Shown one piece after another: positions 1 through 56,509 of a DNA stretch of 64,000 nucleotides. Positions within the stretch are counted from its first letter, which is position 1, and each line of letters starts with the position of its first letter. This stretch comes from Spirochaetia bacterium (lineage in GTDB: Bacteria > Spirochaetota > Spirochaetia > WTKD01 > G963693115). The translations under genes and the position numbers were made by a program. The notes under the pieces are model-generated. The model had not been told where the DNA came from. It was given only the letters and a program-made list of their open reading frames with translations, and made no database searches. Location: NCBI GenBank assembly GCA_965226055.1, contig CBDDCA010000006.1:352001-416000 (forward strand). The letters are read 5' to 3'.

Positions 1-282
1 TTAGGCGGACTTATCTCTCCTTTAGAAGGCTTAGGTCCTGAACAACTGACTATTGATACACTCAATACACGCATAAAAACAGAAGCGTATCAAGAGATAA
101 TTCTTGCAACTCCACCTACTTTAGAAGGCGAAGTTACTGCACGGTATATTATGGATATGCATAACGATAAGCAATCTCTCTTTACGCGCATTGCACAAGG
201 CATGCCTAAAGGAGGTGATTTTGAGTTTACTGATAAATCAACTTTGTCGTATGCATTAGAAGCAAGAAAACAGTTTGAGTAG
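1..282 (+). CDS. recR: Recombination mediator RecR, C-terminal Toprim part (5' end outside window)
   Basis: Frame 1 reads LGGLISPLEGLGPEQL...EIILATPPTLEGEVTARYI...TRIAQGMPKGGDFEFTDKSTLSYALEARKQFE*, the typical RecR C-terminus. Not in the ORF track because it has no start here. Confidence 0.93.
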   Translation, partial: LGGLISPLEGLGPEQLTIDTLNTRIKTEAYQEIILATPPTLEGEVTARYIMDMHNDKQSLFTRIAQGMPKGGDFEFTDKSTLSYALEARKQFE

Positions 283-285
283 ATG

Positions 286-1143
286 CTACATATTATTGTT
301 TCTATACTGTACATCATGATTGTCAAATAACATATCTGTTTGCTGTGTTTTTTTCTGTTGAATAAAAGGCAATCTATATTCTTCTTTTATTGTTCCATTA
401 TTGTGAAGTCTGTCAAGTATCATATTATAATACTCACTATGAATCTCACAGCTTATAAAATTTCTCTGAATGTCTTTACATAATACTAACTCACTCCCAC
501 TTCCACCAAACAAAATAAAGCAAGTATCATTTTCTTTTGTACAAGACTTTATTAGCATTTCAACAAGAGGCAAAGGAATTTGACACGCATGTAATGTTTT
601 ATCCTTACTGACATTTTTCACTAAATCAAAGTAAAACCAACTATATGGCATTCTTCCTTTATGTCCATTTCTTATTCTTTCTTTAATTCTTTTATCATCA
701 GGATTTTGATATGGTACTGAAATATGATCTTTATAGAAATTATTATGTTTTGATTTTGTTGCATGGAGTATACTTCTATGCGCAGTGGTCAATCTTTGTT
801 TACTATGCCCTACATTAGTATTATATATCCATACATAGTCTTGTATATTATATGCATTATCATCTAAATACTTCACACGTAAATGAGCATTCTGTTTTGG
901 ATAATTCATCATGAAAAGATTACCTGTATGTTTTAACACCCGCATACACTCTGTAGTAAGAGCAATATACCAATCAATATATTCATTCCATTTTTTTGTA
1001 TATTGTTTCCCTGAATAATTTATACCCACATTATAATCAGGATCACCATATATCATATCTAAAGAATTATCAGGTAATTCCTTAAGAACCTCAAAGACAT
1101 CCTTATTAAAAACTTTGTTTTTATATGCTTCTATACTTCCCAT
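286..1143 (-). CDS. N6A/N4C DNA methyltransferase, beta class
   Basis: Motif IV variant GDPDYNVG precedes HACQIP and the SAM-binding motif I (ILFGGSGS), followed by ISCEI. Confidence 0.88.
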   Translation of the reverse strand: MGSIEAYKNKVFNKDVFEVLKELPDNSLDMIYGDPDYNVGINYSGKQYTKKWNEYIDWYIALTTECMRVLKHTGNLFMMNYPKQNAHLRVKYLDDNAYNIQDYVWIYNTNVGHSKQRLTTAHRSILHATKSKHNNFYKDHISVPYQNPDDKRIKERIRNGHKGRMPYSWFYFDLVKNVSKDKTLHACQIPLPLVEMLIKSCTKENDTCFILFGGSGSELVLCKDIQRNFISCEIHSEYYNMILDRLHNNGTIKEEYRLPFIQQKKTQQTDMLFDNHDVQYRNNNM

Positions 1144-1146
1144 ACT

Positions 1147-1935
1147 CTACTTATATGATAGTCTATATTCAGCAGATTTTACAAGAGTTATAGAATCTAA
1201 CTTATATACATCAGTAAATGTATATACATACATTCTAATAATAGAATGCATAGAATCTTTATCCTTCTCTCTTACGAGATAACAAGCATTTATTCCTCTC
1301 ATATCTATATTATTCTCTTTTGCTAACAAATGATAATATAAACAAGGAAGAAAGAGTTGGTATATAGCAAAATCTGTACGAAATCCATTTTTACATTCAA
1401 ATACAGTTACTTGTTTCCTATACTCTGTGGTCATATCAACTTCAATTTGTAATGTGCTAATGTTTATTCTCTCGTCTCCAATAGTATATATACAAGAAGG
1501 TATTTTTGTTCTTTTTGCAAGATATATATTAGGAACTATAGAACTATCATTGTAGAGAAAATGTGATATTATTTTTTGATTCATTCCTACTGATAAAATA
1601 TTACTTTCACTGGTATCGTATTCATTTAATAAACTTCTCTCATATTGCCATAGCTGTATACATTCATTTGGTATAGTTTCAAACATATGATACCATTTTC
1701 TTATTCCTTTTACAAACTTATGTTTACCAGCACCTAAATGAAGCACAAAATAATCCTCTTGTAGTATTTCTTCTGGCAACTTATCAGAACTATCTATTTT
1801 TGTAACATCAAAAGGATTTCCAAAAGAATGGAATTGAGCATATTGTTTTACAAGATCATTATCAAAAACAAAATTATTATCCTTTTTACACTGCCGAAAC
1901 AAAGACAATAATACTTGTTGCTTTTTATTTGCCAT
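1147..1935 (-). CDS. Putative type II restriction endonuclease (PD-(D/E)XK fold, DUF6997-like)
   Basis: QIEVD...VFECK nuclease-like motif and IYQLFLP. Lies 3 bp upstream of the MTase on the same strand. Confidence 0.65.
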   Translation of the reverse strand: MANKKQQVLLSLFRQCKKDNNFVFDNDLVKQYAQFHSFGNPFDVTKIDSSDKLPEEILQEDYFVLHLGAGKHKFVKGIRKWYHMFETIPNECIQLWQYERSLLNEYDTSESNILSVGMNQKIISHFLYNDSSIVPNIYLAKRTKIPSCIYTIGDERINISTLQIEVDMTTEYRKQVTVFECKNGFRTDFAIYQLFLPCLYYHLLAKENNIDMRGINACYLVREKDKDSMHSIIRMYVYTFTDVYKLDSITLVKSAEYRLSYK

Positions 1936-1949
1936 TACAATGTGCTAAT

Positions 1950-3263
1950 CTATAAAGATTCTGTTTCAGCAATAAACTTATCAAGGTTAAATGCACTTGG
2001 TCGTTCAATGGGTATCTCCAGTATTCTGTCAATGATGTGTTGTGACATAAGTCCTACAATACGTCCCGTACCAAAAAGTACCGTATAAAAATCAAACTCC
2101 TTTATACCTGTTGCATACAAAGCTGCTCCTGTAATGGCATCTATATTGGGGTTAGGATTGTTAATTTTTCCTTTTTTCTTCAATACATCGGGAGCGACAG
2201 AATATATCATCTGTACTATATCCAAATACTCAGAGTGTATGGTGTTATTTTGTAAAAAGTTTTGTATAAGCGTAAATCGTGGATCTTCTACACGCAATGC
2301 TGCATGTCCATACCCCGGTATTTTTTTTCCTTGATCAACATAGTCCTGTATATACTGTTGTACAAACTGTGCATCAAGCGTTTTTCCTGATGTTTCTGCA
2401 TTCTTTTTAAGAGTTTGTATCCACTTAAATGTTTCTTCATTTGCATGCCCGTGTAATGGACCAGCAAGTGCTACCATACTGGCAACACAGGTATAAAATG
2501 CATTCACAAGCGTAGAGCCTACAAGGTGACATGTATGTGCCGAAGCATTTGCAGGGCCGTGATCTGCATGAGTAAAAATAAAGAGACGTATAAAATCTTG
2601 CATGCTAGGGTTGCTTATTCCCATCATATTTGCTAAGTTGCCTGCCCAATCAAGATAGTAATTTGGGGATATACTATCGACTTCTTTACAGTAGCGAGTG
2701 TATATATACGAAGCAATCTGATTAAGTCCCGCAATAAGAGTCATTGCATCACTATACGAATAATCCCAATAGGTTTCCTTTGGTATCCCCATATCGTATT
2801 TTTCCATAAATGTGGATGTTGTTGTCCAACAGAGTAAGGCTACACAAAAACGCGTCATAGCACTACTTTTTTTAGGAAGGTTATCAATAACACTAAAAAT
2901 ATGATGCGGAATATGTGTTCGCATAAGCAGATGTAACCGTAAATCTTCAGCTTGTTTCTCTGTAGGGCATTCTCCAGTAAGTAAAAACCATAGTAATGAT
3001 TCTGTGCTGGGCACTGCAGAGTCTTGAAATGTAGGGAGTAGCTCAACCACTTCCGCTAAGGGTTTGCCACGATAATATACTCCTTTATCTGCAAAGACAA
3101 TAGATGTGGGAGTATAGAGTAATGGAAGTCCTCGCATTCCATAATATACATCATGGGGAGTGATTGTTCCTGTCGAGAGCTTTCCTTTTTGCTTTATGAT
3201 ATCTACAATTTTTTTTCGTAATACTATATTCTTTTCGTAGGTAAGTGTCTTTAGTTCTTTCAT
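1950..3263 (-). CDS. gltA: Citrate synthase, eukaryote-like type
   Basis: YYGMRGL, DHGPANASAH, LAGPLHGHANE, IPGYGHAALR, DPRF, NPNIDA, PIERP motifs; 437 aa. Confidence 0.88.
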   Translation of the reverse strand: MKELKTLTYEKNIVLRKKIVDIIKQKGKLSTGTITPHDVYYGMRGLPLLYTPTSIVFADKGVYYRGKPLAEVVELLPTFQDSAVPSTESLLWFLLTGECPTEKQAEDLRLHLLMRTHIPHHIFSVIDNLPKKSSAMTRFCVALLCWTTTSTFMEKYDMGIPKETYWDYSYSDAMTLIAGLNQIASYIYTRYCKEVDSISPNYYLDWAGNLANMMGISNPSMQDFIRLFIFTHADHGPANASAHTCHLVGSTLVNAFYTCVASMVALAGPLHGHANEETFKWIQTLKKNAETSGKTLDAQFVQQYIQDYVDQGKKIPGYGHAALRVEDPRFTLIQNFLQNNTIHSEYLDIVQMIYSVAPDVLKKKGKINNPNPNIDAITGAALYATGIKEFDFYTVLFGTGRIVGLMSQHIIDRILEIPIERPSAFNLDKFIAETESL

Positions 3264-4339
3264 AATTTATTTATAATCTCCTGTGTAAAAATATCGGTAG
3301 ATACTGCCTTTGAGGATTCTTCGGAAGGCAATAGATCTACAGTGAGTGCTTTTCTTTCTTGTAATACAGAAAACAATGCTTGTTCTAGCGTATCGGCTGC
3401 TTTTTGTTCTTGAATATCACGCAGTAACATAATACCACACAAAATCAATGCAGTAGGATTTAGCATATTTCTGCCTGCAAACTCTGGAGCTGCTCCATGC
3501 GTAGCTTCGTATACAGTAGCTTGCTGTCCAATGTTTGAGCCAGGAGCAACCCCTAGCCCTCCCATCAGTCCTGCACAAAGATCGGATACAATATCACCAT
3601 ATAAATTAGGGAGCAGTAACATATCGAAACTTTCGGGAACTTGCACCAATTTCATACACAAAGCATCTATGAGTACATGGTCGCATTCTATGTCGTATTT
3701 ACTAGCTTCATCTTTTGCTACTTCCAAAAAGAGTCCATCACTATATTTCATAATATTAGACTTTGTTACTATAGTGAGCTTATTTCTGTTATTACGTGCT
3801 GCATATTCACAACTAAACTTACAAATACGTCTCGTGGCTACTTCACTTATTGCTTTTATTGAAATACCTGCCTCTAAGGGTATTTGCTTTGTATTGAGTG
3901 CATTACATTGACGAATAAGCTGCTGTGTGGCTTCTTTGTGCGCTTCAAACTCTACTCCTGCATACAAATCTTCTGTATTTTCACGTACAATAACTATATC
4001 AATATTTTTTGTATCTCCAAACGGTGAAGGAATACCAGGCAATGTTTTACATGGACGTACACAAGCAAATAAATCAAGTGTCTGTCGCAGTGCAACATTT
4101 ACGCTACGAAACCCTTTTCCTATAGGAGTAATAATTGGCCCCTTGAGTGCCAATTTTGTTTTCTTTATTTCCTCTAATACATGTTCAGGTAAAAGAGATT
4201 GTTCTTTCTCAGCAACAGAGGCCCCTGCTTGCTTTTCTATCCAATGTATGGACGCTCCACTTGCATCAATACATTTTCGCGTAGCTTCTACTAATTCGGG
4301 ACCTACGCCATCCCCTGGAATCAATACTACATTTTTCAT
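3260..4339 (-). CDS. icd: Isocitrate/isopropylmalate dehydrogenase family protein, probably isocitrate dehydrogenase
   Basis: IPGDGVGPE, LKGPIITP, RSVNVALRQ, RENTEDLY, PNLYGDIVSD, EATHG. Overlaps the citrate synthase start by 4 bp. Confidence 0.85.
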   Translation of the reverse strand: MKNVVLIPGDGVGPELVEATRKCIDASGASIHWIEKQAGASVAEKEQSLLPEHVLEEIKKTKLALKGPIITPIGKGFRSVNVALRQTLDLFACVRPCKTLPGIPSPFGDTKNIDIVIVRENTEDLYAGVEFEAHKEATQQLIRQCNALNTKQIPLEAGISIKAISEVATRRICKFSCEYAARNNRNKLTIVTKSNIMKYSDGLFLEVAKDEASKYDIECDHVLIDALCMKLVQVPESFDMLLLPNLYGDIVSDLCAGLMGGLGVAPGSNIGQQATVYEATHGAAPEFAGRNMLNPTALILCGIMLLRDIQEQKAADTLEQALFSVLQERKALTVDLLPSEESSKAVSTDIFTQEIINKL

Positions 4340-4398
4340 ATTCTTATTATACTGTTTTTTAACTTATCATGTTAGAAAAGATGTATTTTATCTTTCTT

Positions 4399-7200
4399 CT
4401 ATTTATGGTATATGTCAGTATATTCATGAAATTGTTCTCTTACTGCATCTATTTTTTCATTTCGTTCTATAAGTTTGTATTTTTTGATAAACATAGCTTC
4501 TATTTCGTCTCCTAACGGTTCTTTGTTATCATACAGATAATTGTCAATCATTTGCCAAAAAGCATCTTGTTCTAGCTGATATTCTTCACATATCCGTTTG
4601 AGTGCTTTCTTTCGCTCCCCTTCAACAAAGGACTCGTATGCTTCTTCTATGTTGATATCATGTGCTTGTGATGAAACACGCTCTATAAAATTTTCAATAA
4701 GCTGTTTTTTACTTCGTAACTGTGGGTTTGCATCAATGGTGGCATATATTTTTTCTTTGAGTGATTGTTGTTTATCCTTTGGTGCATTGAATAAATCAGT
4801 CAGCAAACGTAGGATGTAGTCTACAGTAATATCATCTTTTTGGATAAGCTGTAGCTCAAAATCTATGTCATCGATAATTGATTCTTTGCTTCTGTTGTTT
4901 TTTGTTTTATCATGTATATCAAGATACTTAGAGGTATAATTTTCAAACTCCTGCTCAGAGAGGGGTATATTATCATCATCCCATGTAAAATCACTAAAGC
5001 CCTTGAGAGTATTTATGACACGCATGAGATCTCTAAATGCTTTAATAAAGGCAAGCGTCTCCTCTTCGCCTTTGAGGGCATCCACATCTTCTACATGTGG
5101 AGCAATAGCAATAAGTGCATCGTAGGCTTGCTTACATTGTTCCACATAATCCTGATATGGCTGTAAAAGAATGGTATCTTTTGCATCTTTGTTTGAAAAT
5201 AAGGCTATAGCCTCATCTGTTTTTTGTTTTAGATTGCGGAAACATACGATATTGCCATGACTTTTTTGCTCGTTATATATACGGTTGGTGCGTGAAAATG
5301 CCTGTATGAGTCCATGATACTGCAGGGATTTATCAACATATAATGTATTCAGGAACTTGCTATCAAAGCCTGTCAAAAACATGTTTACTACTATCAGTAT
5401 ATCTATTTCTTTTTTTCGTACACGTTTTGAAATATTATTGTAGTAATCATAAAAACTGTCAGTACTGTGTGCTGTGTACTGCGTAGTAAACATTTTATTA
5501 TAGTCCTGTATACATGTTTCAAGTGCATCTCTTGCGTAGCTGTTGATAGCTCCTTGATTATCATCACGTACAGAAGCTATATCGGGGATAGTATGTGCAT
5601 TCATTTCTTCTTCATTTTGAGAATAGCTGAACACTGTTGCAATTTTGAGATCATGCTCTTTTTTCTTAAAGAGAGCATAGTAACGAATAAGCACTTCAAT
5701 AGAAGGAACACAGAGTATGGCAGTGTATTGCTTTTTATGTGTTTTTTGTGAATGATGCGTAAGAATATAATCTACTATTTTTTCTATTCGTTTGTCACTC
5801 CCTAAAAATTCCTTTGTATCTATGTCTTCTACTGATATGTCTATGGTATTCTTGCTCTGCTCATTTTCTTTATAGCGTCCTACATATTCCACAGAAAAGC
5901 GTAGCACATTACCATCACGGATAGCATCAACAATGGTATAGCGGTGCAGACTTTTGCCAAATACAGAAGCAGTGGTTTTATCATTTTTTTGTGCGTTTTC
6001 TTCAAATATAGGAGTGCCTGTAAATCCTATAAGCTGATGCTGTGGAAAGAAAGAGGTGATATTTTTATGCGTTACTCCAAACTGGCTTCTATGACATTCA
6101 TCAAAAATACATACTATTTTTTTATTTTTTATGTTTTGTAGCTTTGTTTGGTGTTTCTCTACTGCTATATTGAGTTTTTGAATGGTGGTAATAATGAGTT
6201 TTTTATTGTTATCTTGTAATTGTTGTATGAGATGTTTTGTGTGTTCTGTAGCATCTACACTGCCCTCACTAAAGCTATTAAATTCTTTGCTAGTCTGATA
6301 GTCAAGATCTTTTCTGTCCACTACAAACAGTATTTTATCGATTGTTGCATCTTGCGTGAGAATCTGAGATGCCTTAAACGAGGTGAGTGTTTTTCCACTG
6401 CCAGTAGTATGCCAAATGTAGCCATTGTTGGTGGTGTTCTGCACCGTATTGACAATTTCTTCTACTGCATAAAACTGATAAGGACGCAATACTAACATCT
6501 TTTCTTCAGCTTCTGACAAGACTATGTAGCGACATATCATTTTTGATATATGGCATTTTTCTAAAAAAATTGAGGTAAAATCCTCTAATCGTGATACTAT
6601 GGTATTATCTTTTTCTGCCCAAAAAAATGTTTGCTTAACATTCAAGTCTCTATTGTTTGCATAGTACTTTGTGTTCACTCCATTGCTAATAATAAATATC
6701 TGTATGTATTGAAATAAAGCGGTGTTGCTTCCATACGAATGTTTTTGATACCGAGATACTTGTTGAAAGGCTTCTTTTATTTCTAAGCCTCTGCGTTTTA
6801 ATTCTACTTGAACAAGAGGGAAGCCATTTATCAACAGTGTTACATCATATCGATTATGATATTGTCCTTGTACTGATATTTGCCGACTTACTTGAAAGAG
6901 GTTTTTGCACCAATGCTCGCTGTTTAAGAATCGTATATGTACAGTAGTCCCATCATCTCTATGTATAAGGCATCTGTCACGGAGTATTTTTGCTTTTTCA
7001 AAAATGTTCCCTTTGTGTAAGTGATGGAGTACCTGTGTAAACTCTGCCTTACTGAGACTTATGTCATTAAGTGCTTCTAGTTGTCGTTTTAGGTTTGCCT
7101 TCAGTTCGGCTTCGTTGCTAATAGGTACATACTCATAGCCCATGCTTTGTAGCTGTGATACAAGGCGTGCTTCTAACTCGTGTTCTGATTGAGTGGACAT
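4399..7200 (-). CDS. hsdR: Type I restriction enzyme R subunit
   Basis: Nuclease motif YDVTLLING...QVELK, Walker A HTTGSGKT, DECHRSQ, FTGTP, MFLTGFD, IQAFSRTNR. Confidence 0.96.
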   Translation of the reverse strand: MSTQSEHELEARLVSQLQSMGYEYVPISNEAELKANLKRQLEALNDISLSKAEFTQVLHHLHKGNIFEKAKILRDRCLIHRDDGTTVHIRFLNSEHWCKNLFQVSRQISVQGQYHNRYDVTLLINGFPLVQVELKRRGLEIKEAFQQVSRYQKHSYGSNTALFQYIQIFIISNGVNTKYYANNRDLNVKQTFFWAEKDNTIVSRLEDFTSIFLEKCHISKMICRYIVLSEAEEKMLVLRPYQFYAVEEIVNTVQNTTNNGYIWHTTGSGKTLTSFKASQILTQDATIDKILFVVDRKDLDYQTSKEFNSFSEGSVDATEHTKHLIQQLQDNNKKLIITTIQKLNIAVEKHQTKLQNIKNKKIVCIFDECHRSQFGVTHKNITSFFPQHQLIGFTGTPIFEENAQKNDKTTASVFGKSLHRYTIVDAIRDGNVLRFSVEYVGRYKENEQSKNTIDISVEDIDTKEFLGSDKRIEKIVDYILTHHSQKTHKKQYTAILCVPSIEVLIRYYALFKKKEHDLKIATVFSYSQNEEEMNAHTIPDIASVRDDNQGAINSYARDALETCIQDYNKMFTTQYTAHSTDSFYDYYNNISKRVRKKEIDILIVVNMFLTGFDSKFLNTLYVDKSLQYHGLIQAFSRTNRIYNEQKSHGNIVCFRNLKQKTDEAIALFSNKDAKDTILLQPYQDYVEQCKQAYDALIAIAPHVEDVDALKGEEETLAFIKAFRDLMRVINTLKGFSDFTWDDDNIPLSEQEFENYTSKYLDIHDKTKNNRSKESIIDDIDFELQLIQKDDITVDYILRLLTDLFNAPKDKQQSLKEKIYATIDANPQLRSKKQLIENFIERVSSQAHDINIEEAYESFVEGERKKALKRICEEYQLEQDAFWQMIDNYLYDNKEPLGDEIEAMFIKKYKLIERNEKIDAVREQFHEYTDIYHK

Positions 7201-7338
7201 AGCTTTATTATAGTATACTTACTTTTCTTGCTCCTTTGTCGCATTTAGTCCTTGAATCCGCAGAAATGGCATATAATAACGCCCGTTTAATAGTGAAACC
7301 ACAAAGTGATTGGTTAAAACTTACATAAGAAGCTATTT

Positions 7339-8793
7339 TTACACAAACATCCTTTGTAATAGGCCTTTCTTATACAGCTTTGTAAGTGCTACTTGTTTCT
7401 GTGTGAGTGATATTTTTGTGTCAAGGCTCTGTAAGAAAGAGCCTATCTTTTGTTGTTCTTTTATTGATGCAGGAATTTTTATACGAATAGAACTCATTAC
7501 ATCATTCATCAATTTTGGATTACCCACATATGATACAAATTTCTTTGTTATTGCATTAAGAATTTCTGCAATACATACATTTGCATACCCTTTATCACTT
7601 TTTAACACTCCACATACATTAGTACAGTAAAATTTTCCTTTTCTATAATTCACATCCCCAGCATTAGCTCCATCTGTTGTCCATGTAATACAATTTTCAA
7701 ATAAATATTTATGATAGTATCCCATTAAGCCTTTATTTTTTGTTTGTGAAGAAAAAACAGGATAAACATAGTGATCTGTTTGTATTGGGGATATATCTGT
7801 TTTGGATAAAACAAGCCCTCGTGTTACATAAAATATCTCACCTATTTCCCTCTCTTGCCAATCGGGATACTCGTTTCCTTGTTCGTCCTTAAAGCGTAGC
7901 TCCTGTGAAAAAAGTTTTTGCATGATGCCTTTTTTGTATGACTGCAACAGTACTACTTTTCTTTCAAGGAGCTGTATCTTTGTGTCTACACTCTCCAGAA
8001 AAGAGACTATCTTTTGTTGTTCAGGCAGGGAAGGACACCCTATTTGAAACTCTTTAATATCTCTTGAGTTCACAGATTCAAAGGTACTCCCTTGCGAATA
8101 CTTTTTCCATAGATGCTCAGCGTTGATTAACGCATAGTAGAAAAATGTATAACTTGAAGTACGGATAGCACACATTCCACGCCCTATAATACCATTATGT
8201 ACGGATAAAGCTATATCCCCAACAGGAGCTCGTACGCTCATTAAAATATCATTTACAAAACATCGTTGTGTTATTTCTGTTGTCCAAACACGAGGGACTG
8301 TTCTTCTGTTTTTTATATCAGCATTCCCTTGAAATAATGGCTCTCCTTTTTGAATACCATTATAATGTTCTGATTTAGGAGAACTTCCCATAAAAATCTC
8401 AGCCACTTCTCCTAATTGCTTCTCTTGCCAATCAGGAAAATCAGAGCCATCGTCCTGCTTGAAGCGTATGAGAGGATTTTTCTGCTTGAGAGGAAATGCT
8501 ATTTTATGCGTATCTATTGCCTTTTGAAATTTTTCAGAAATAGCATTCATATCAAGCACATCCACTGTATACGGTAATCGAGATTCTTCAAAATTGTACT
8601 TGAGACGAGCAATAATGACAGTATCAATCTTTTTGTCTGCTTCTAGGGCAAGATCTAAATCAGAGTAATCCTGTGCTTGTCCCTTTACACGACTTCCAAA
8701 TACCCATACTTTACATCCTGCAGGGACATATCTAGACAGTATAGAAGAAACAATATTGAACTCTTGCTTTTTTATATCAAAGTTGAGTTTCAT
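7339..8793 (-). CDS. hsdS: Minimal nucleotidyltransferase (MNT) fused to type I specificity subunit HsdS
   Basis: About aa 1-100 carry VWVFGSRVKGQAQDYSDLDL (GSX10DXD) and LPYTVDVLD. The rest has two TRDs with conserved spacers (IRFKQDDGSDFPDW, PSLPEQQKI, KKGIMQKLF, LRFKDEQGNEYPDW, EQQKIG, KKGLLQRMFV). Single uninterrupted ORF. Confidence 0.92.
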   Translation of the reverse strand: MKLNFDIKKQEFNIVSSILSRYVPAGCKVWVFGSRVKGQAQDYSDLDLALEADKKIDTVIIARLKYNFEESRLPYTVDVLDMNAISEKFQKAIDTHKIAFPLKQKNPLIRFKQDDGSDFPDWQEKQLGEVAEIFMGSSPKSEHYNGIQKGEPLFQGNADIKNRRTVPRVWTTEITQRCFVNDILMSVRAPVGDIALSVHNGIIGRGMCAIRTSSYTFFYYALINAEHLWKKYSQGSTFESVNSRDIKEFQIGCPSLPEQQKIVSFLESVDTKIQLLERKVVLLQSYKKGIMQKLFSQELRFKDEQGNEYPDWQEREIGEIFYVTRGLVLSKTDISPIQTDHYVYPVFSSQTKNKGLMGYYHKYLFENCITWTTDGANAGDVNYRKGKFYCTNVCGVLKSDKGYANVCIAEILNAITKKFVSYVGNPKLMNDVMSSIRIKIPASIKEQQKIGSFLQSLDTKISLTQKQVALTKLYKKGLLQRMFV

Positions 8794-9313
8794 AATATTT
8801 TTCTAGCTTCTCCAAAAGGTATTCGGCTTCTGCTAAAAAAAGAGGTAATTGCTCTACAATATCTATTGCCATAGCTTCATTATATCCATGAGAAGTTTTG
8901 TTTCGGTTGGCTCTATACTCCGACCACACATCCCAGCTGTGTAGGATAATTCCTTTTTCTGCAGCTAAGCGTACTTTATTTTGTAAATCCATATGTTTTA
9001 TATCGCTTGGATTATCAACAATATTTTTTAAATGCCGTGTCATAAATTTCAAGGATAAATCATAGCAATATTCAAAACGCTGAATACAAGAGTCTCGTAT
9101 ATAATCAATCTTTGATATAATTTCTAATAATACATATGATGATATTCTACCCTTGATACCCTTACTTAAAATTTGTTTTTTTAAAAATTCTTCAAATAAT
9201 GCTAATTCTCCAGATTCTTCCTTCTCTTTTAATTTTTGCGCGTCATTTAATACTTCCTTATAAGTAGAGATAGCATTTCTCAGTGGCGTTAAGTCCAGTT
9301 GCTCTTCGTGCAT
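8777..9313 (-). CDS. HEPN-domain toxin (HI0074 / nucleotidyltransferase substrate-binding family)
   Basis: LDLTPLRNA, IRDSCIQRFEYCYDLS and RNKTSHGY (RX4HXY). Overlaps the MNT-hsdS start by 17 bp. Confidence 0.88.
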   Translation of the reverse strand: MHEEQLDLTPLRNAISTYKEVLNDAQKLKEKEESGELALFEEFLKKQILSKGIKGRISSYVLLEIISKIDYIRDSCIQRFEYCYDLSLKFMTRHLKNIVDNPSDIKHMDLQNKVRLAAEKGIILHSWDVWSEYRANRNKTSHGYNEAMAIDIVEQLPLFLAEAEYLLEKLEKYYETQL

Positions 9314-9340
9314 ATTTCACATATTACTATACTTTTCAGA

Positions 9341-10924
9341 TCACAATGGCATTGCAATATTCAGCTGTTCACAAACATCCTTAATGCTGTTGTCTGTCTC
9401 TTGCATTGCCTTTTTTAGCTCTTTTATTTCCACACTTAGCGCCTGTATATCCACAGGCTCTTCTTCATCAAAAGTGTCAACATAGCGTGGTATGTTTAAG
9501 TTATAGCCGTTTTCCTTTATCTCATCCATAGGGGCATTATACGAATATTTATCTATTGCTTGCCTGCTTCTATAGGTATCAATAATTTTGTCTATATGTT
9601 CCTCTGTCAGTGAGTTTTGATTTTTCTTCTTTTCGTACTGCTGTGATGCATCAATAAACAGCACGGCATCATCCTGCTCTCTACATTTCTTAAACACTAA
9701 AATACAGGTAGGAATACTAGTCCCATAAAATATATTTGAAGGCAATCCTATCACTGCATCCAAGTAGTTTTTACTTTCTATCAAGTACTTTCTTATATGT
9801 GCCTCACTTGCACCTCTAAACAACACACCATGTGGCAATACCACTGCCATAATGCCTCTCTCTTCTAAGTGATATATCATATGTTGTACAAACGCAAAGT
9901 CTGCTTTTGTTTTTGGGGCAAGTGTTCCATATGCCGAAAATCGTTCATCAGTCTGAAAAAAAGAACTAGCTGACCATTGAGCACTAAAGGGAGGATTTGC
10001 CACAATAGCTTCAAATTTTTCCGTATGCTGTGGTCGTTCTAGAGTATCCTCCTGTTTAATATCAAAATCACGATAGGATATATCATGCATTATCATGTTC
10101 ATTCGAGCTAAATTGTAAGTGGTACGATTTAACTCTTGCCCATAAAAATTGGAAACATTTGTTACTTCTTTTGCTACCCGCAATAACAAGGAGCCTGAGC
10201 CACAGGTAGGATCATACACTGTAAGCAATTTTTTCTTTCCTGTTGTCACTATCTTTGCTAGTATACGTGATACCTCTTGTGGAGTATAAAATTCCCCTGC
10301 TTTTTTTCCAGCACTTGCAGCAAACTGAGCAATGAGATATTCATAGGCATCTCCCAATACATCTCTTTTATGATTTTGAAAATCAAAATCTACCGCATCC
10401 AAACTTGAAAGTATTCTTACAATAAGCGTATTTCTCTCTTCCACCGTTTTTCCCAGTTTCGTAGAATTAAGATCTAAATCTTCAAAAAGATGTATAAAAT
10501 CATCTTCGCTTTCATATCCCATCGTTGTTGTTTCAATATTACTAAGAATTTTACCTAAATCGTCTAAAATAAACTGGCTTGTAGCATTTTTGTCAGTGTT
10601 ATTTCCACGTCTTAGCAACTGAGAAAATAACTCTTCAGGAAAAAGAAAGTATCCCAACTCATTTATAGATCTTTTCTTTACATTCTTTATAATATCCAAA
10701 TACTTTTCTTTCTCTTTCTCATGAGAATCAACGAGAGAAGTATATGTTATTTCATCTTGCTCCAATAGCTTGTTTGCATGCGCTTCCATCTTTTCAGATA
10801 AATACTTATAAAAGATAAACCCTAGAATATAGTCCTTAAACTGATCAGCATCCATTTTACCTCGTAAGGCATTGGCAATACTCCAGAGCTGTGTCTCTAG
10901 CTGTTTTTTTTCTTGCTCGCTCAT
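9341..10924 (-). CDS. hsdM: Type I R-M methyltransferase subunit M
   Basis: LWSIANALRG, GEFYTPQEVS, YDPTCGSGSLL, ANPPF, PHGVLFRG, YNLNIPRYV. Confidence 0.97.
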   Translation of the reverse strand: MSEQEKKQLETQLWSIANALRGKMDADQFKDYILGFIFYKYLSEKMEAHANKLLEQDEITYTSLVDSHEKEKEKYLDIIKNVKKRSINELGYFLFPEELFSQLLRRGNNTDKNATSQFILDDLGKILSNIETTTMGYESEDDFIHLFEDLDLNSTKLGKTVEERNTLIVRILSSLDAVDFDFQNHKRDVLGDAYEYLIAQFAASAGKKAGEFYTPQEVSRILAKIVTTGKKKLLTVYDPTCGSGSLLLRVAKEVTNVSNFYGQELNRTTYNLARMNMIMHDISYRDFDIKQEDTLERPQHTEKFEAIVANPPFSAQWSASSFFQTDERFSAYGTLAPKTKADFAFVQHMIYHLEERGIMAVVLPHGVLFRGASEAHIRKYLIESKNYLDAVIGLPSNIFYGTSIPTCILVFKKCREQDDAVLFIDASQQYEKKKNQNSLTEEHIDKIIDTYRSRQAIDKYSYNAPMDEIKENGYNLNIPRYVDTFDEEEPVDIQALSVEIKELKKAMQETDNSIKDVCEQLNIAMPL

Positions 10925-11031
10925 ATAATTTAGTATAGCACTATATTGTTATCTGTACAGAAAGGATTATATATACGCACGAGTTCAAGCATAAAATACT
11001 ATGAGATAAAAATATGATATAGTATACATAG

Positions 11032-11106
11032 GCTCCCGGTAGCTCAATAGGATAGAGCAATCGCCTCCTAAGCGATAGGTTGCGGGTTCGACTCCCGTCC
11101 GGAGCA
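11032..11106 (+). tRNA. tRNA-Arg(CCT)
   Basis: D arm TAGCTCAATAGGATAGAGC, anticodon arm ATCGC-CT-CCT-AA-GCGAT, T arm GCGGG-TTCGACT-CCCGT. Acceptor stem GCTC(C)CGG/CCGGAGC. CCA is not encoded. Confidence 0.92.
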
Positions 11107-11180
11107 TTATGTGGATGCCACAGTATAAGAAACACTTATTATTATGATTATCAAACAATAAAAATAAGAAAGGAACATGT

Positions 11181-13328
11181 ATGAAAAAATTTGTAAAATT
11201 TATTTTTTTTATTATCCTCGTTATTGCAATAGTGGTTGCAATAACACAGTTTAGACAGTACTTAACATTATCGTATATACAATCACAGCTAAGTACTTTA
11301 CAGGCATATATACAAAATAATTTCTGGTATTCTGTGCTTGTTTATTTTTGCATATATGTGCTTGCTACTGCTATTTCAATCCCTGGAGCAATATTACTCA
11401 CCCTCTTGGGAGGAGCATTATTTGGGGCCATATATGGCACTATTATCGTTTCATTTGCAAGCACTATAGGAGCAACAATTTCCTTTATTCTTGGACGCTT
11501 TTTGTTTCGTGGATCCTTAGAGAAAAAATTTCCAAAACAACTTGCAAACATCAACAAAGGAGTACAAAGAGAAGGGGCTAATTATTTATTTGCCTTACGT
11601 CTTGTTCCTGTATTTCCTTTCTTTGTTATCAATCTCCTTATGGGACTTACACGTATACCAGTACTCACTTTTATGATAGTAAGTCAAATTGGTATGTTGC
11701 CTGGCACCATAGTGTATGTATATGCTGGGGGAGCATTATCTACATTACAAAATTTAGGGGATATTGTAAGCCCACAAATATGGCTTGCGTTTGCACTTAT
11801 TGCTACACTGCCTTTTATCTCTAAGTTGATAACTGGTGCTATAAAAAAAGCAAAACTCTATAAAGGACTTAAGAAACCAAAGCAATTTGACACAAATGTT
11901 GCTATTATTGGAGCTGGCTCAGGAGGACTTATTGCTGCGTATATTGCCGCAGCTATCAAAGCAAAACCAGTACTTATAGAAAAAGCCGAAATGGGTGGCG
12001 ATTGTCTCAACCGTGGCTGTGTTCCTTCAAAAGCACTCTTATCAATTAGTAAATATGCCGATGCACACAAAGATTCGGAAGCGGTGGGCATTAGCTATAC
12101 GAAACCAAAAATAAACTTCAAAAAAGTAATGGCAATGGTACACGAAGCTATCAATACCGTAGCTCCACACGATAGTGTAGAACGCTATACTTCACTAGGA
12201 GTACAGTGTATACAAGGTACTGCAGAACTTGTATCTCCATGGGAAGTAAAAGTAGGAGAAAAAACTATAGTGGCAAGAAACATCATATTAGCTACTGGAG
12301 GCTATCCTCGTATCCTTGATATTCCCGGTGCTGACACAGTAACGCAATATACCTCTGATACAATATGGAACATAACTACATTGCCCGAAGAGCTTATCGT
12401 AGTAGGAGGTGGTCCTATAGGATGTGAACTAAGCCTTGCTTTCTCTCGACTTGGAAGCAAAGTAGTGCTTATACAAAGAAACAATCAACTGCTTCCCCAA
12501 GAAGATCCAGAAGTAGGAGCAATAGCAAAAGATACATTACAAAAACATGGAGTACATGTTGTCACTGGCTTTAGTCCAGAACAAATACTCACAAAAAATA
12601 AAAAGCAATACCTACAAATAAGTGTAGACGGAAAAGCAAAGCATGTGCCTTTTACTCACCTCCTTGTTGCAGCAGGAAGACAGGCTGCTACAGAATCGTT
12701 TAAGCATAGTGGACTACAGTTTGAGTATAACAACAATGGCACGCTGTATACAAACGAATATTTACAAACAAGCTATAACAACATATTTGCAGTAGGAGAT
12801 CTGACAGGCCCATATCAATTTACCCATACCGCAGGACACATGGGATGGTATGCAGTAGTAAATGCTCTTTTTGGTGGTCTTAAAAAATTTGCTATTGACT
12901 ATTCATGTGTTCCAGCAGTTACCTATTTAAGTCCAGAAATAGCACGTGTCGGCTTAAACGAGAAAGAAGCAAAAGAACAAAACATAGCATATGAAACAAC
13001 CATATATAAAATGGAAGAACTTGATAGAGCAATAGCCGAACGAAAAACAGAAGGTTTCATCAAGATACTCACAAAACCAAAGAAAGATACTATTCTTGGT
13101 GCTACTGTGGTATCAGAACGAGGAGGCGAAATATTAGGAGAGCTGTTGCTTGCGACAAAATACAAACTAGGGCTTAATAAAATTCTTGGAGTTATCCATC
13201 CTTACCCTACTTTTACAGAATCAGTAAAGGCTACTGCAGGAGTGTGGAAAAAAGCTCATTCCCCTACAAAAGCATTGCAGATGCTTGAGAAATACTTTGC
13301 GAAAAAAGTCAAAAAACAAGAGGAATAG
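11181..13328 (+). CDS. TVP38/VTT (DedA-like) membrane domain fused to a pyridine nucleotide-disulfide oxidoreductase
   Basis: N-terminal membrane region with LRLVPVFPFFVIN, then GAGSGG, GGDCLNRGCVPSK, GGGPIGCE and HPYPT. Confidence 0.88.
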   Translation: MKKFVKFIFFIILVIAIVVAITQFRQYLTLSYIQSQLSTLQAYIQNNFWYSVLVYFCIYVLATAISIPGAILLTLLGGALFGAIYGTIIVSFASTIGATISFILGRFLFRGSLEKKFPKQLANINKGVQREGANYLFALRLVPVFPFFVINLLMGLTRIPVLTFMIVSQIGMLPGTIVYVYAGGALSTLQNLGDIVSPQIWLAFALIATLPFISKLITGAIKKAKLYKGLKKPKQFDTNVAIIGAGSGGLIAAYIAAAIKAKPVLIEKAEMGGDCLNRGCVPSKALLSISKYADAHKDSEAVGISYTKPKINFKKVMAMVHEAINTVAPHDSVERYTSLGVQCIQGTAELVSPWEVKVGEKTIVARNIILATGGYPRILDIPGADTVTQYTSDTIWNITTLPEELIVVGGGPIGCELSLAFSRLGSKVVLIQRNNQLLPQEDPEVGAIAKDTLQKHGVHVVTGFSPEQILTKNKKQYLQISVDGKAKHVPFTHLLVAAGRQAATESFKHSGLQFEYNNNGTLYTNEYLQTSYNNIFAVGDLTGPYQFTHTAGHMGWYAVVNALFGGLKKFAIDYSCVPAVTYLSPEIARVGLNEKEAKEQNIAYETTIYKMEELDRAIAERKTEGFIKILTKPKKDTILGATVVSERGGEILGELLLATKYKLGLNKILGVIHPYPTFTESVKATAGVWKKAHSPTKALQMLEKYFAKKVKKQEE

Positions 13329-13371
13329 CACACACTAATATATAACAACCGTATATAACCCACAAGGGGAG

Positions 13372-13869
13372 CTACCATATACGTGGCACAAAAGAGCTTG
13401 TATTCTCTGACAACACCGTATGGTGAGGACGTGAAAACAAATATAAGCCCAATGTATCGGCAAGTTTTTTTGCTGAACGGGATATTGTATATCCTGCTAG
13501 CCCAAAAAATACCTGTGTGATTTTGTGATTTTTATTTACATATCCCGAATAAAAACGCTTAAACAGTTCTGCAAGCTCATCAAGGCTAATCCTTATATCA
13601 GGAATAAGAAAAGGAAACCCTCTCTCAAATACTTGTTCTACCGTTTGCTTTGTAATATCATGTTCTACACTAATAAGAGCAAATGAGTCTTTACTTAACA
13701 TGATAATATTACGCTCATTGAGTTCAGAACAAAAACTACATTTTTCAACAAAATTAAATTGCTCATTATCAAGCATAGGGTATTTTGAAAAATGTTCCGA
13801 AAAATATTCTTCAACATTCTTTGTTCGTTCTTTAGAAAAATCTTGAAAGTAAATATCAATTAAGTCCAT
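13372..13869 (-). CDS. Hypothetical protein with a degenerate PD-(D/E)XK-like C-terminus
   Basis: The C-terminus GLAGYTI...AKKLADTLGLYLF...NTSSFVPRIW resembles DUF3782-type proteins. No clear ExK motif. Confidence 0.45.
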   Translation of the reverse strand: MDLIDIYFQDFSKERTKNVEEYFSEHFSKYPMLDNEQFNFVEKCSFCSELNERNIIMLSKDSFALISVEHDITKQTVEQVFERGFPFLIPDIRISLDELAELFKRFYSGYVNKNHKITQVFFGLAGYTISRSAKKLADTLGLYLFSRPHHTVLSENTSSFVPRIW

Positions 13870-13922
13870 ATATAATCCATAGTATCATACTTCTATAACA
13901 AAAAATTATAGTTATTACTCTA

Positions 13923-14261
13923 TTGTATTATAATAGAAAATGGAAAAAATGCAATACACATTTTAAGGAAATTATATACACTGTAGCCAATAGTAAAATA
14001 ACTGAGAATAAACAATCAAACAATATGCATTGTATAAATTTATTTGCAAATGGAACTGTTACTATACAGCCACATGGTGAGATTAACGATAGAAAAATTG
14101 TTATTGTTCATGGACATGACACAGATGCAAAAAATGCTTTAGAGGTTATGAACTTTAGGTGGGGATTAAAACCTTTTGCTATTCAAGTTGATGAAAAAAT
14201 TGAAGAAATTAAAGACAGGCTTCGATTACGATTAGAAAGTCTGGGTATAGAATTTCATTAA
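13923..14261 (+). pseudogene. Internally deleted TIR-like nucleotide-binding protein
   Basis: INLFANGTVTIQ...KIVIVHGHDTDAKNALEVM...WGLKPF matches the start of bacterial TIR-like (Cap12/Pycsar-type) domains, then jumps directly to a C-terminal-like helix. Confidence 0.55.
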
Positions 14262-30241: not shown

Positions 30242-31522
30242 CTATTGTATCAAAAATTCTGGAAGCCAAAGTGTTAAAAAAGGCAGCAAACAAATTAGCA
30301 ACAACACGACAATATTTCCTATGAGTATAGGAAGTGCTCCCTTAAATATCTTGAATATGGATAAACCAGAGATTGCTGAGGCAACATTAAGACAGGTACC
30401 AACAGGAGGAGTTACTGCTCCAACCGCTAATCCTGCTATAAGTAATACCCCAAACTGTATAGGAGATATTCCTAGCTGTAAACATACTGGTAAGAATACA
30501 GGAGTAAAAATAATAATGGCAGGAGTAACATCAATAAAAGTGCCTGCCATCAAAATAATCACCATCATACAAATAAGTGTCAAAGGAGCACTCAATCCCA
30601 AACTTACAATGTAAGCTCCTAGCTTTGCAGGAATCATTTCAATAGAGAGTATCCATACATATAGTTGAGAGCTCGCAATGATAATCATAATTGAGCTACT
30701 CACTTTTATTGCTTGACTAAACAAAGCTGGTATAGCTCTAATTTTAATTGATTTGTAAATAAAATATCCAATAATAAGAGCGTACATCACCCCAAAAGAA
30801 GCAGCTTCATTTGATGTTGCTATTGCTAATATCACCGAACCAATAACAATGACAGGCATAAGCAATGCCAGCATTGACTCTCTTAAAAGATGAAAAAATT
30901 CAGCCACATTCTTAAAATGCATCTTTTCAACAGGATATTTGTTTCTATACGATAATATGAGATTCATAACAATTTGAAATAGCCCTATCAGTACACCTGG
31001 TATCAGAGCGCCTATAAACAGTTTTCCTATTGATTGACTTGAACTGATAGCATATATTACCATAGGCACACTTGGCGGAATTATCATTCCCATAGTAGAA
31101 GACGCTACTGTAATTCCAGAAGCATATGATTTTGGATACCCTCTCTCTTCCATTGCAGGAATCAAAATAGCTCCCACTGATGCCGTGTCTGAGGTAGATG
31201 ATCCAGATATCCCTCCAAAAATCATACTTGATATAATATTGATAGTACCTAATCCTCCACGTTGTCGCCATACAAAAATACCACTAAAATTTATGATTTT
31301 TTTAGTTAATCCTGCCTCATTCATTATCTGCCCCATTGCAATAAACAAAGGTAATGCAATAAGACCATAATTATTAAAGCCGTTATAAATTTTTTGTGGA
31401 ACAATAGAGATAAATTCAGGGTTAAATAAAAACAAATATACTAAAGAAGAAAGTCCTAAACATACTCCTATAGGCATGCCTATTATGAGAAAAAACAGTA
31501 AAGAAATAACCAGCACACTCAT
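30242..31522 (-). CDS. dctM: TRAP transporter large permease
   Basis: ALPLFIAMGQIM, FGGISGSSTSD, IIPPSVPM, GAVTPPVG. Confidence 0.93.
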   Translation of the reverse strand: MSVLVISLLFFLIIGMPIGVCLGLSSLVYLFLFNPEFISIVPQKIYNGFNNYGLIALPLFIAMGQIMNEAGLTKKIINFSGIFVWRQRGGLGTINIISSMIFGGISGSSTSDTASVGAILIPAMEERGYPKSYASGITVASSTMGMIIPPSVPMVIYAISSSQSIGKLFIGALIPGVLIGLFQIVMNLILSYRNKYPVEKMHFKNVAEFFHLLRESMLALLMPVIVIGSVILAIATSNEAASFGVMYALIIGYFIYKSIKIRAIPALFSQAIKVSSSIMIIIASSQLYVWILSIEMIPAKLGAYIVSLGLSAPLTLICMMVIILMAGTFIDVTPAIIIFTPVFLPVCLQLGISPIQFGVLLIAGLAVGAVTPPVGTCLNVASAISGLSIFKIFKGALPILIGNIVVLLLICLLPFLTLWLPEFLIQ

Positions 31523-31525
31523 ATA

Positions 31526-32050
31526 TTACAGTCCTGTATACTCAGCTACTTGTTCTTGCTGTAAGTAATTTTTACGAAACAGAATAAGTATAATATTTCG
31601 TATAATATAAATAATAGTGATACCAGCATACACAAAGATGGCTGATTCTTGTACCCAATAAGGAATGCCTAAAATAGTAGTTTTTGATCCTCCCGTCACT
31701 CTTATCCAATCAATAGCATAATAGATGATCATTACATGAAAAAAGATATTACAGAAATACGCAAAGATAATCACAACTTTAGACAACGAAGGCGGCAGTT
31801 TTTCTAAAAAAAACGATATTCTTATATGGCTTCTATCCCTATAAAGCAAAGATGCTCCAATAGCAGTACCATATATAAACAGCACAGTAGATACTTCTGC
31901 CCCTCCAAATAGAGAGGCACTAAATACATATCGTAACAACACCAATAAAAATACTATGATAAATATAGTAATAAAACATACTGTCATCACGAAATTAATC
32001 AGTTTTGTAAAGAGCATCTCACATTTTTTAGTAGCCTCTGTTATATTCAT
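31526..32050 (-). CDS. dctQ: TRAP transporter small permease
   Basis: VLLRYVFS, EVSTVLFIY, HIRISF; four TM segments. Confidence 0.88.
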   Translation of the reverse strand: MNITEATKKCEMLFTKLINFVMTVCFITIFIIVFLLVLLRYVFSASLFGGAEVSTVLFIYGTAIGASLLYRDRSHIRISFFLEKLPPSLSKVVIIFAYFCNIFFHVMIIYYAIDWIRVTGGSKTTILGIPYWVQESAIFVYAGITIIYIIRNIILILFRKNYLQQEQVAEYTGL

Positions 32051-32077
32051 ATCACCTATTTACTTTTCAATATCTTA

Positions 32078-56314: not shown

Positions 56315-56509
56315 ATGAGTAACAAGACAAAAAATCAGCGTCTACCCCCCATACGTTTCAAGCAGGACGATGGCTCTGATTTTCCTGACTGGGAAGAGAG
56401 GAAGTTGGGGGATATTTTAGAGTATGAACAACCTACAAAATATATATACTCCCCCTTGCATCCCAGCAGCATTTCCTTTATACTATTTGCATGCAAATAT
56501 CATGTATAA
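56315..56509 (+). pseudogene. Orphan 5' fragment of a type I hsdS
   Basis: [44 protein letters not shown]. 56357-56388 is identical to the reverse complement of 8432-8463. Confidence 0.85.

Follow-up and report, generated by a model that had tools for sequence, protein, structure and literature searches.

In this study, we analyzed a 64,000-nucleotide stretch of DNA from a Spirochaetia bacterium (GenBank assembly GCA_965226055.1, contig CBDDCA010000006.1, positions 352,001 to 416,000; hereafter the window), and found that a type I restriction-modification (R-M) operon within it contains, between hsdM and hsdR, a HEPN gene of the HI0074 family followed by a single open reading frame (ORF) in which a minimal nucleotidyltransferase (MNT) domain is fused to the specificity subunit HsdS. 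The reading we favor, with a probability of about 0.6, is that this EcoR124I-like operon holds a pair resembling the type VII toxin-antitoxin (TA) system HepT/MntA, and that the AMPylating antitoxin is tethered to HsdS, which would make silencing of the toxin R-M-dependent. The biochemical core of this reading is very probable, and a real coupling of the RNase to the R-M complex has about even odds.

All four genes lie on one strand in the order hsdM, HEPN, MNT::hsdS and hsdR (Table 1). This order had been proposed by a first-pass annotation made from the sequence alone, and it was borne out by ORF positions and by Pfam and NCBIfam matches. The same annotation had described a 17-bp overlap between HEPN and the start of the fusion, the motifs RNKTSHGY and GSX10DXD, and an MNT that continues without a stop into an HsdS with two target recognition domains (TRDs); each of these can be read directly from the sequence, with the HEPN stop codon TGA at 8777-8779, the fusion ATG at 8791-8793, and one ORF of 484 amino acids. 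As a type I R-M locus it is complete, encoding HsdM, an HsdS with two TRDs and two helices, and an HsdR with motor and nuclease domains. The HEPN protein scores 64.8 bits against the NCBIfam model TIGR01987 (HI0074), above the cut-off of 55.8. By analogy with characterized systems, the Arg and His of its RX4HXY motif are predicted to be the RNase catalytic residues, and the Tyr the residue that MntA enzymes AMPylate.

The source is a draft genome of 6 contigs and 89% completeness, and contigs from public sequencing runs break within hsdS at repeated conserved segments, both of which might raise the suspicion that the fusion was misassembled, that a frameshift arose in sequencing, or that a recent read-through is confined to the source genome. 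We consider the chance of this negligible. A separately assembled Spirochaetia metagenome-assembled genome (MAG), locus L002, has the same ORF of 484 amino acids, with 94.6% DNA identity over window positions 7293-14018, and the same architecture recurs in 56 loci and 71 protein clusters, as described below. Moreover, the first-pass annotation had proposed that reads be checked for a stop or frameshift near 8480-8500. None was seen, and Logan contigs from four runs of three studies span the junction (about 8464-8500) free of indels: X1 and X2 of study P1 cover 8441-9400 with 0 differences, X4 of P2 covers 8377-9400, and X5 of P3 covers 8385-8784, although X1, the best match, may be the sample behind the window assembly. 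An artefact or one-off read-through was thus ruled out.

The architecture is widespread, as was seen when genomes were searched for nucleotidyltransferase and Methylase_S fusions beside HEPN genes, another check the first-pass annotation had suggested. A word-indexed search with fusion residues 1-200 listed 120 proteins, 25 of which carry both PF18765 and PF01420. When residues 1-135 were compared exhaustively by phmmer with 1.84 billion representatives of clusters at 50% identity, 760 matches reached E <= 1e-10; among the best 150 of these, 71 proteins have at least 400 residues, 30 have 160-399 and 49 have fewer than 160, and all 71 long ones contain Methylase_S together with Polbeta. A genome scan with one genome per species yielded 319 confirmed stretches, the best 80 of which were kept for the counts that follow, after classification by ORF calling and phmmer with five parts of the window proteins within a 6-kb flank. 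Many of these records are MAGs, and some are long-read assemblies with obvious frameshifts (e.g. L043). The 80 loci comprise 56 with an MNT ORF of at least 400 amino acids, 5 cut by a contig end, 3 of intermediate length and 16 with short MNT genes. The HsdS part of the 56 fused loci was recognized by phmmer in 41 and by Pfam in all 15 others. HEPN lies directly 5' of the fusion in 54 of the 56, the exceptions being L045, at a contig start, and L055; hsdM is found upstream in 51, hsdR downstream within the flank in 39, and HEPN, hsdM and hsdR together in 36. These fused loci belong to 13 named phyla, with 26 in Chloroflexota, 9 in Pseudomonadota and 6 in the archaeal Nitrososphaerota.

Within R-M operons the fused state is the rule. 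The 80 loci include 56 fused and 5 contig-cut R-M-embedded cases, versus 3 in which MNT and HsdS are separate neighbors (L043, L070 and L079), and in all three of these other genes are broken too. According to Pfam, the HsdR C-terminus is EcoR124_C in the window and T1RH-like_C (HindI-like) in L036 and in plasmid pZMOB01 of Zymomonas mobilis ATCC 10988, the C-terminal assignment to T1RH-like_C concerning these two cases only; the fusion therefore occurs in at least two type I families. The plasmid pZMOB01 is a carrier in a cultured, non-pathogenic organism, and its genes are included in Table 1. We considered whether the viable deletion of a plasmid hsdS in Zymomonas ZM4 (Lal et al. 2021, PMC8432527, of which a part was available) could serve as a test of addiction, and dropped it: the ZM4 plasmid pZM32 carries hsdR-hsdM-hsdS with no HEPN or MNT, and the deletion therefore has no bearing on that question. 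Phage records queried with the MNT-plus-junction sequence gave no match.

Table 1. Features of the operon in the window and of the corresponding genes on Z. mobilis plasmid pZMOB01
Feature	Replicon	Position	Strand	Basis
hsdR, type I restriction subunit, 933 aa, EcoR124I-like (type IC-like)	window	4399-7200	-	TIGR00348 530.7 bits; PF12008 EcoR124_C E 1.1e-56
MNT::hsdS fusion gene, single ORF, 484 aa	window	7339-8793	-	PF18765 Polbeta aa 28-97, PF01909, two PF01420 Methylase_S stretches
HsdS part, aa 111-484: two TRDs and two long conserved helices (aa 256-295, 444-482)	window	7342-8463	-	two PF01420 stretches; model
Linker, aa 101-110, between MNT domain and usual HsdS N-terminus	window	8464-8493	-	dip in model confidence; alignment
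MNT domain, aa 1-100, predicted AMPylating antitoxin	window	8494-8793	-	PF18765 E 1.9e-10; PF01909
GSX10DXD nucleotidyltransferase motif GSRVKGQAQDYSDLD, G33-D47 of fusion	window	8653-8697	-	read from sequence
HEPN gene, 178 aa, HI0074 / NTase_sub_bind family, predicted RNase toxin	window	8777-9313	-	PF08780 E 1.8e-23
RX4HXY motif RNKTSHGY, R137-Y144 of HEPN	window	8882-8905	-	read from sequence
hsdM, type I methyltransferase subunit, 527 aa	window	9341-10924	-	TIGR00497 469 bits (cut-off 242.75), PF02384, PF12161
tRNA-Arg(CCT), adjoining operon start, upstream of hsdM	window	11032-11106	+	ARAGORN
HI0074-family gene	pZMOB01	3-392		
527-residue fusion with N-terminal Polbeta, named 'restriction endonuclease subunit S'	pZMOB01	389-1972		
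hsdR	pZMOB01	1969-5154		
hsdM	pZMOB01	30878-32470		

The two halves of the fusion are each recognizable by fold. An AlphaFold2 model built with 23 fusion sequences has a mean predicted local distance difference test (pLDDT) score of 86.7, and its sole dip, to 72, falls on residues 101-110 between blocks of 90 and 88. Alignment of relatives shows a conserved junction of the form ..FP..(6-8 aa)..P.LRF.. at this place; the spacing between the third Asp and the first conserved HsdS Trp has a median of 41 residues in the 92 of 128 fusions in which it was measurable, although the pattern used is crude and the value too rough to rely on. In Foldseek searches, the last 370 residues of the model resemble the S subunit structures 1ydx, 1yf2, 7vru, 5ybb, 2y7c and EcoR124I (7bst), and the N-terminal 100 residues match HI0073 of Haemophilus influenzae (1no5) with a template modeling score of 0.88, a root-mean-square deviation of 1.8 A and about 45-46% identity, as well as the Legionella MNT antitoxin 8xeo and the Shewanella MntA structures 7bxo, 6m6u and 5yep. 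HI0073 and HI0074 are also the closest solved relatives by sequence of MNT (1no5, E 3.6e-20) and HEPN (1jog, E 2.8e-13), respectively. Prediction of a complex between HEPN and MNT residues 1-108 scored 0.00 in both runs, which were made without controls and thus carry no weight either way.

The catalytic motifs of both partners are retained. GSX10DXD is kept in all 56 fused loci, and G33, R35, S44, D45, D47 and D78 are invariant among 71 fusions, so that the window MNT has, as in type VII systems, the motif together with the third catalytic Asp (D78). RX4HXY, present in the window HEPN, is found in 70 of the 75 HEPN genes that partner an MNT (exceptions L006, L011, L037, L070 and L071) and in 50 of the 54 HEPN partners of fusions; an alignment of 27 HEPN sequences shows no variation at R137, T140 and Y144, and conservation of 90% or more at H142. 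Judged from these sequences, both motifs are under purifying selection. The same residues bear on an alternative in which there is no TA pair at all, HEPN being a substrate-binding partner and the HsdS-borne MNT controlling restriction by nucleotidylating HsdR, HsdM, DNA or a phage protein. Names in Pfam and NCBIfam, which speak of a substrate-binding subunit as HI0073/HI0074 were first described, agree with it, and TA-derived MNT-HEPN pairs have been domesticated into regulatory enzymes according to the available part of PMC3710099; the toxicity of HEPN in this clade is, moreover, a prediction. The same source, however, reports that domesticated HEPN domains typically lose their RNase residues, whereas here the R and H of RX4H and the acceptor Tyr persist in 70 of 75 partners, and HEPN has an overlapping ORF of its own, the arrangement known from TA pairs. 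We therefore regard this alternative as improbable, and it may be taken, by homology with HepT/MntA, that the HEPN protein is an RNase toxin and that the MNT domain AMPylates the Tyr of RX4HXY, thereby silencing it.

Comparison with known systems places the window operon close to several of them. Like type VII HepT/MntA, it has a RX4HXY HEPN and a GSX10DXD MNT encoded by adjacent overlapping genes, with fold matches to 7bxo, 6m6u, 5yep and 8xeo. Unlike type VII, its antitoxin forms one chain with a DNA-recognition subunit of 374 residues, HEPN is the first gene of the pair, and the MntA equivalog model stays below its cut-off. The HI0073 protein is free and of about 110 amino acids, in contrast to the window MNT, which is the N-terminus of HsdS, and no R-M context is recorded for the solved HI0073/HI0074 pair in the literature examined. 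Published HEPN/MNT stoichiometries of 2:6, 2:2 and 1:4, in the parts of the reports available, assume a free MNT.

PrrC, found with EcoprrI (type IC), offers another comparison, since it too is an RNase of the HEPN superfamily whose gene lies within a type IC-like hsd operon. An ABC ATPase forms the N-terminus of PrrC, and binding masks the protein without any antitoxin enzyme. In contrast, the window HEPN is a 178-amino-acid single-domain protein, in which PF08780 was the only domain found, and it has a dedicated nucleotidyltransferase; as it lacks the ABC ATPase that defines PrrC and RloC, PrrC is therefore an analogy and not a member of the same family. PrrC is thought, in the accessible part of PMC3632139, to be silenced by the R-M enzyme. 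PIN toxins (PMC5499597) and other embedded genes (bioRxiv 10.1101/2024.01.29.577857) resemble the window cargo in lying between hsdM and hsdS and being co-transcribed, but in the portions of these works available to us they are neighbors with no covalent fusion to a subunit. Finally, in single-chain MNT-HEPN fusions (PMC13000451, available in part) the MNT is joined to its own toxin, whereas the window MNT is joined to a third protein and the toxin remains separate.

How might such an arrangement work? We propose that a HEPN/MNT pair of the HI0074/HI0073 family was taken into a type I operon and that the MNT came to sit on the N-terminus of HsdS through a linker of about 10 residues. With overlapping stop and start codons, the fusion would be translated just after the toxin from the same mRNA, and each antitoxin molecule would also be an HsdS molecule; RNase silencing would therefore depend on HsdS being made, and probably on its assembly with HsdM. 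Free HsdS of EcoKI and EcoR124I is poorly soluble without HsdM. Loss or shut-off of hsdS would remove antitoxin, methylation and restriction together, while newly made or de-AMPylated HEPN would stay active. Type I systems are by themselves weakly addictive because restriction is alleviated upon modification failure; a tethered antitoxin would make the loss of hsdS, and perhaps of hsdM, costly, and the state of the R-M enzyme could govern the RNase during infection. Judging from this design, the most likely pay-offs would be an addiction that stabilizes hsdM-hsdS and a second-line growth arrest under phage attack. The enzymatic step has a precedent in MntA, whose GSX10DXD motif serves to add three AMPs to Y104 of the RX4HXY motif of HepT, blocking its RNase activity (PMC7641770, in the part available).

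That neutralization may be tied to the R-M complex had been suggested in the first-pass annotation, and our analysis upholds this in part. The anatomy fits, in that the fusion is conserved, recurrent and paired with HEPN, the motifs are kept, and the MNT tracks HsdM. The roles attached to it, namely release of the RNase on loss or inhibition of HsdS, a guard against anti-restriction proteins, and addiction, are possible consequences of the design. Across 45 loci the pairwise identities of MNT and HsdM correlate with r = 0.83, a value reached in 0 of 300 permutations, and they do so also within the EcoR124I-like group A (r = 0.68, n = 10, 1 of 300 permutations) and the other group B (r = 0.66, n = 35, 0 of 300 permutations); this tracking is equally strong as that between MNT and HEPN (r = 0.78). 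These correlations imply that the cassette and the R-M genes have long traveled together, although plain co-transfer of neighboring genes gives the same correlation, which is therefore no proof of interaction.

On the other side, free pairs are common, and the co-transfer caveat just given is one of several points that weigh against the tethered, R-M-dependent reading. A HEPN-MNT pair with no R-M gene within 6 kb is found in 12 of the 80 loci. Of 401 Spirochaetota genomes searched with HEPN as the starting point, 99 contain the family, and among the best 29 spirochete loci beyond the window's own, HEPN is followed by a free MNT of at most 129 amino acids in 24 (two truncated). Of the remainder, 2 have MNT then HEPN, and no MNT was seen in 3, namely L123 and two whose contigs are very short. 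On a tree built by FastTree from 230 MNT domains (104 columns), fused and free labels cluster, with 24 changes against a shuffled mean of 46.8 and none of 500 shuffles as low. Its well-supported branches force at least seven changes between the two states, many of its forks being unresolved and gains indistinguishable from losses; the tether is therefore not obligatory for a HEPN-MNT pair. The MntA equivalog model NF047752 gives 42.4 bits on the window MNT, under its cut-off of 60. In 4 of the 54 fused loci the HEPN lacks the full motif while that of the MNT is intact. MNT 5' of HEPN is an almost universal order of MNT-HEPN pairs according to the available text of PMC3710099, the reverse of the window; HEPN comes first in 54 of 56 fused loci and 24 of 29 spirochete loci, which departs from the small MNT-first genes of type VII. 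AMPylation is covalent, and antitoxin loss would therefore free only new or de-AMPylated toxin, and reversal has been postulated, and no more than postulated, to need a phosphodiesterase (PMC7641770 and PMC11586414, both available in part). Lastly, for this HEPN-MNT clade, toxicity, AMPylation and any dependence on phage or on HsdM and HsdR are predictions.

Several of these observations would suit an ordinary TA passenger that settled at the hsdM/hsdS junction and lost the MNT stop codon, leaving a harmless fusion and an R-M complex with no say over the RNase; the pair would then behave like any other TA module and might, for instance, stabilize the island. The embedding of defense or TA genes in type I operons is a known habit (PMC5499597; bioRxiv 10.1101/2024.01.29.577857; both in the parts available), and the frequent free pairs of the same clade together with at least seven switches on the tree are as expected for such a passenger. 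So are unfused neighbors: in L118 a HEPN gene and a 104-amino-acid MNT are followed 12 nt further on by a 389-amino-acid HsdS, which is a likely precursor of the fused state, and HEPN, MNT and HsdS are likewise unfused in L079. However, a harmless accident agrees poorly with 56 fused versus 3 split loci in R-M operons, the split ones with other genes broken as well, and with the persistence of the fusion in two type I families and in 71 clusters at 50% identity. Closer relatives share a short junction of similar sequence, and tandem MNT pairs ahead of HsdS in 6 of the 56 fused loci look like an adaptation to tethering. We regard the passenger explanation as unlikely.

A stronger form of coupling can also be imagined, in which the R-M enzyme itself is both antitoxin and infection sensor, with HEPN docked on M2S1 or R2M2S1 through the HsdS-borne MNT. 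HEPN would then carry its AMP only for as long as the enzyme stays assembled and unengaged, and silencing would lapse upon a phage DNA mimic, upon stalling on or titration by unmodified DNA, or upon ATP drain, so that the RNase would abort the infection. This version is unlikely; if true, it would be a physical embodiment of the coupling of immunity to suicide proposed in 2012-2013 (PMC3632139, available in part). For any form of tethering, the number of MNT domains per complex may matter. Tandem MNT pairs, which were counted by motif, are represented among the variants by L024, L027, L029, L059, L075, P0204 and P0014; they suggest that an MNT dimer is wanted, and with one HsdS per enzyme no MNT dimer would form unless two enzymes meet.

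Other features of the window and its relatives were also observed. The tRNA-Arg(CCT) gene beside hsdM is a possible island border. The window HEPN has a 38-residue insert (about residues 35-72; window 9100-9213) between its first two helices, shared only with L002 among the 27 sequences aligned. A promoter and terminator scan of 4200-11300 was uninformative, as the sites it proposed, 22 for promoters and 3 for terminators, did not exceed the 29.6 and 3.2 expected. Among the public runs listed as containing the sequence there was no RNA data set. The sole indel listed in public-run contigs is a 17-nt insert behind 9327, in the hsdM-HEPN spacer, in runs X4 and X5. The contigs jump or break at repeated hsdS segments (window 7455-8470; joints e.g. 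8030>8421 and 7455>7849), and loose ends at 8469/8470 lead into long G tracts, as though hsdS had paralogs or shuffled copies, some of them beginning with homopolymer tracts; we did not take these joints as variants of the window gene, as they may stem from paralogous hsdS genes or other organisms. The source genome (G000, 2.25 Mb) is rich in hsdS-like genes and fragments: one HsdS query matched 17 places, including window 56330-56422, and 7 or more of the matches are nearly full-length. It has a single HEPN of the HI0074-type family. In L002, similarity to the window stops just past hsdS and IS30-like transposase remnants come next (L002 7455-13452 versus window 4399-7339); an hsdR orthologue with 95% amino acid identity lies about 266 kb off (G001:C1:2277890-2280682), and hsdM-HEPN-MNT::hsdS is therefore without an adjacent hsdR there.

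Variants of the architecture were seen in further loci. The spirochete locus L123 (L123:3-2255) has the order hsdM-HEPN-hsdS, with no MNT at the start of its contig-cut hsdS. L057 (L057:5977-8454) encodes an 825-amino-acid MNT::HsdS with a DUF559 / MTES_1575 endonuclease-like domain at residues 436-542, and three fused loci, L007 (8038-8547), L009 (7511-7921) and L026 (8246-8650), have an additional, weaker HEPN-like ORF immediately before hsdR. Many Streptococcus HsdS proteins (P0016-P0111) carry a different N-terminal addition, PF22105 (DUF6943), some forms of 613-630 amino acids having PF22397 as well; the HsdS N-terminus therefore hosts other fused domains too.

A full-text literature search found no description of an MNT::HsdS fusion, although supplements (PMC3710099 Additional file 1, and those of PMC5499597 and Payne et al.) could list such architectures. 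The works closest to it were available to us in part, and the following refers to those parts. Anantharaman et al. 2013 (PMC3710099) noted that MNT-associated HEPN genes cluster with R-M operons and that HEPN-M is occasionally fused to 'nucleic acid methylase domains', with HsdS unmentioned. Matelska et al. 2017 (PMC5499597) described PIN toxins in type I operons and stated that direct TA-RM interaction was not shown, and the main text of Payne et al. (bioRxiv 10.1101/2024.01.29.577857) treats embedded defense genes with no MNT or HsdS fusion. HsdS likewise goes unmentioned in PMC13000451 on MNT-HEPN fusions, PMC11586414 on Legionella and PMC12839542 on BREX. Nevertheless, positions 3-91 of the PADLOC Specificity_I model PDLC03138 (485 positions) align to the MNT domain, and MNT::HsdS is therefore already inside a defense-annotation model, unlabeled; the HEPN protein matched 0 families when compared with PADLOC models. 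With plain 'subunit S' naming and a model that includes the MNT, the architecture is thus hidden in current annotation.

In summary, immunity loci had seemed to encode toxins without antitoxins (PMC3632139, in the part available), and since 2012-2013 toxin genes in R-M and CRISPR loci have been read, in the sources as far as available, as a coupling of immunity to suicide or dormancy, usually without a visible antitoxin. Here the predicted antitoxin is part of the immunity enzyme itself, an arrangement present in 71 or more protein clusters and in 13 named phyla, and the tethered-antitoxin interpretation is plausible on comparative grounds. This raises the questions of whether the state of a type I enzyme may control an RNase and whether that accounts for the persistence of weakly addictive type I systems. 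The general coupling idea thereby becomes a defined two-gene experiment, for which pZMOB01 of Z. mobilis ATCC 10988 would be a tractable model.

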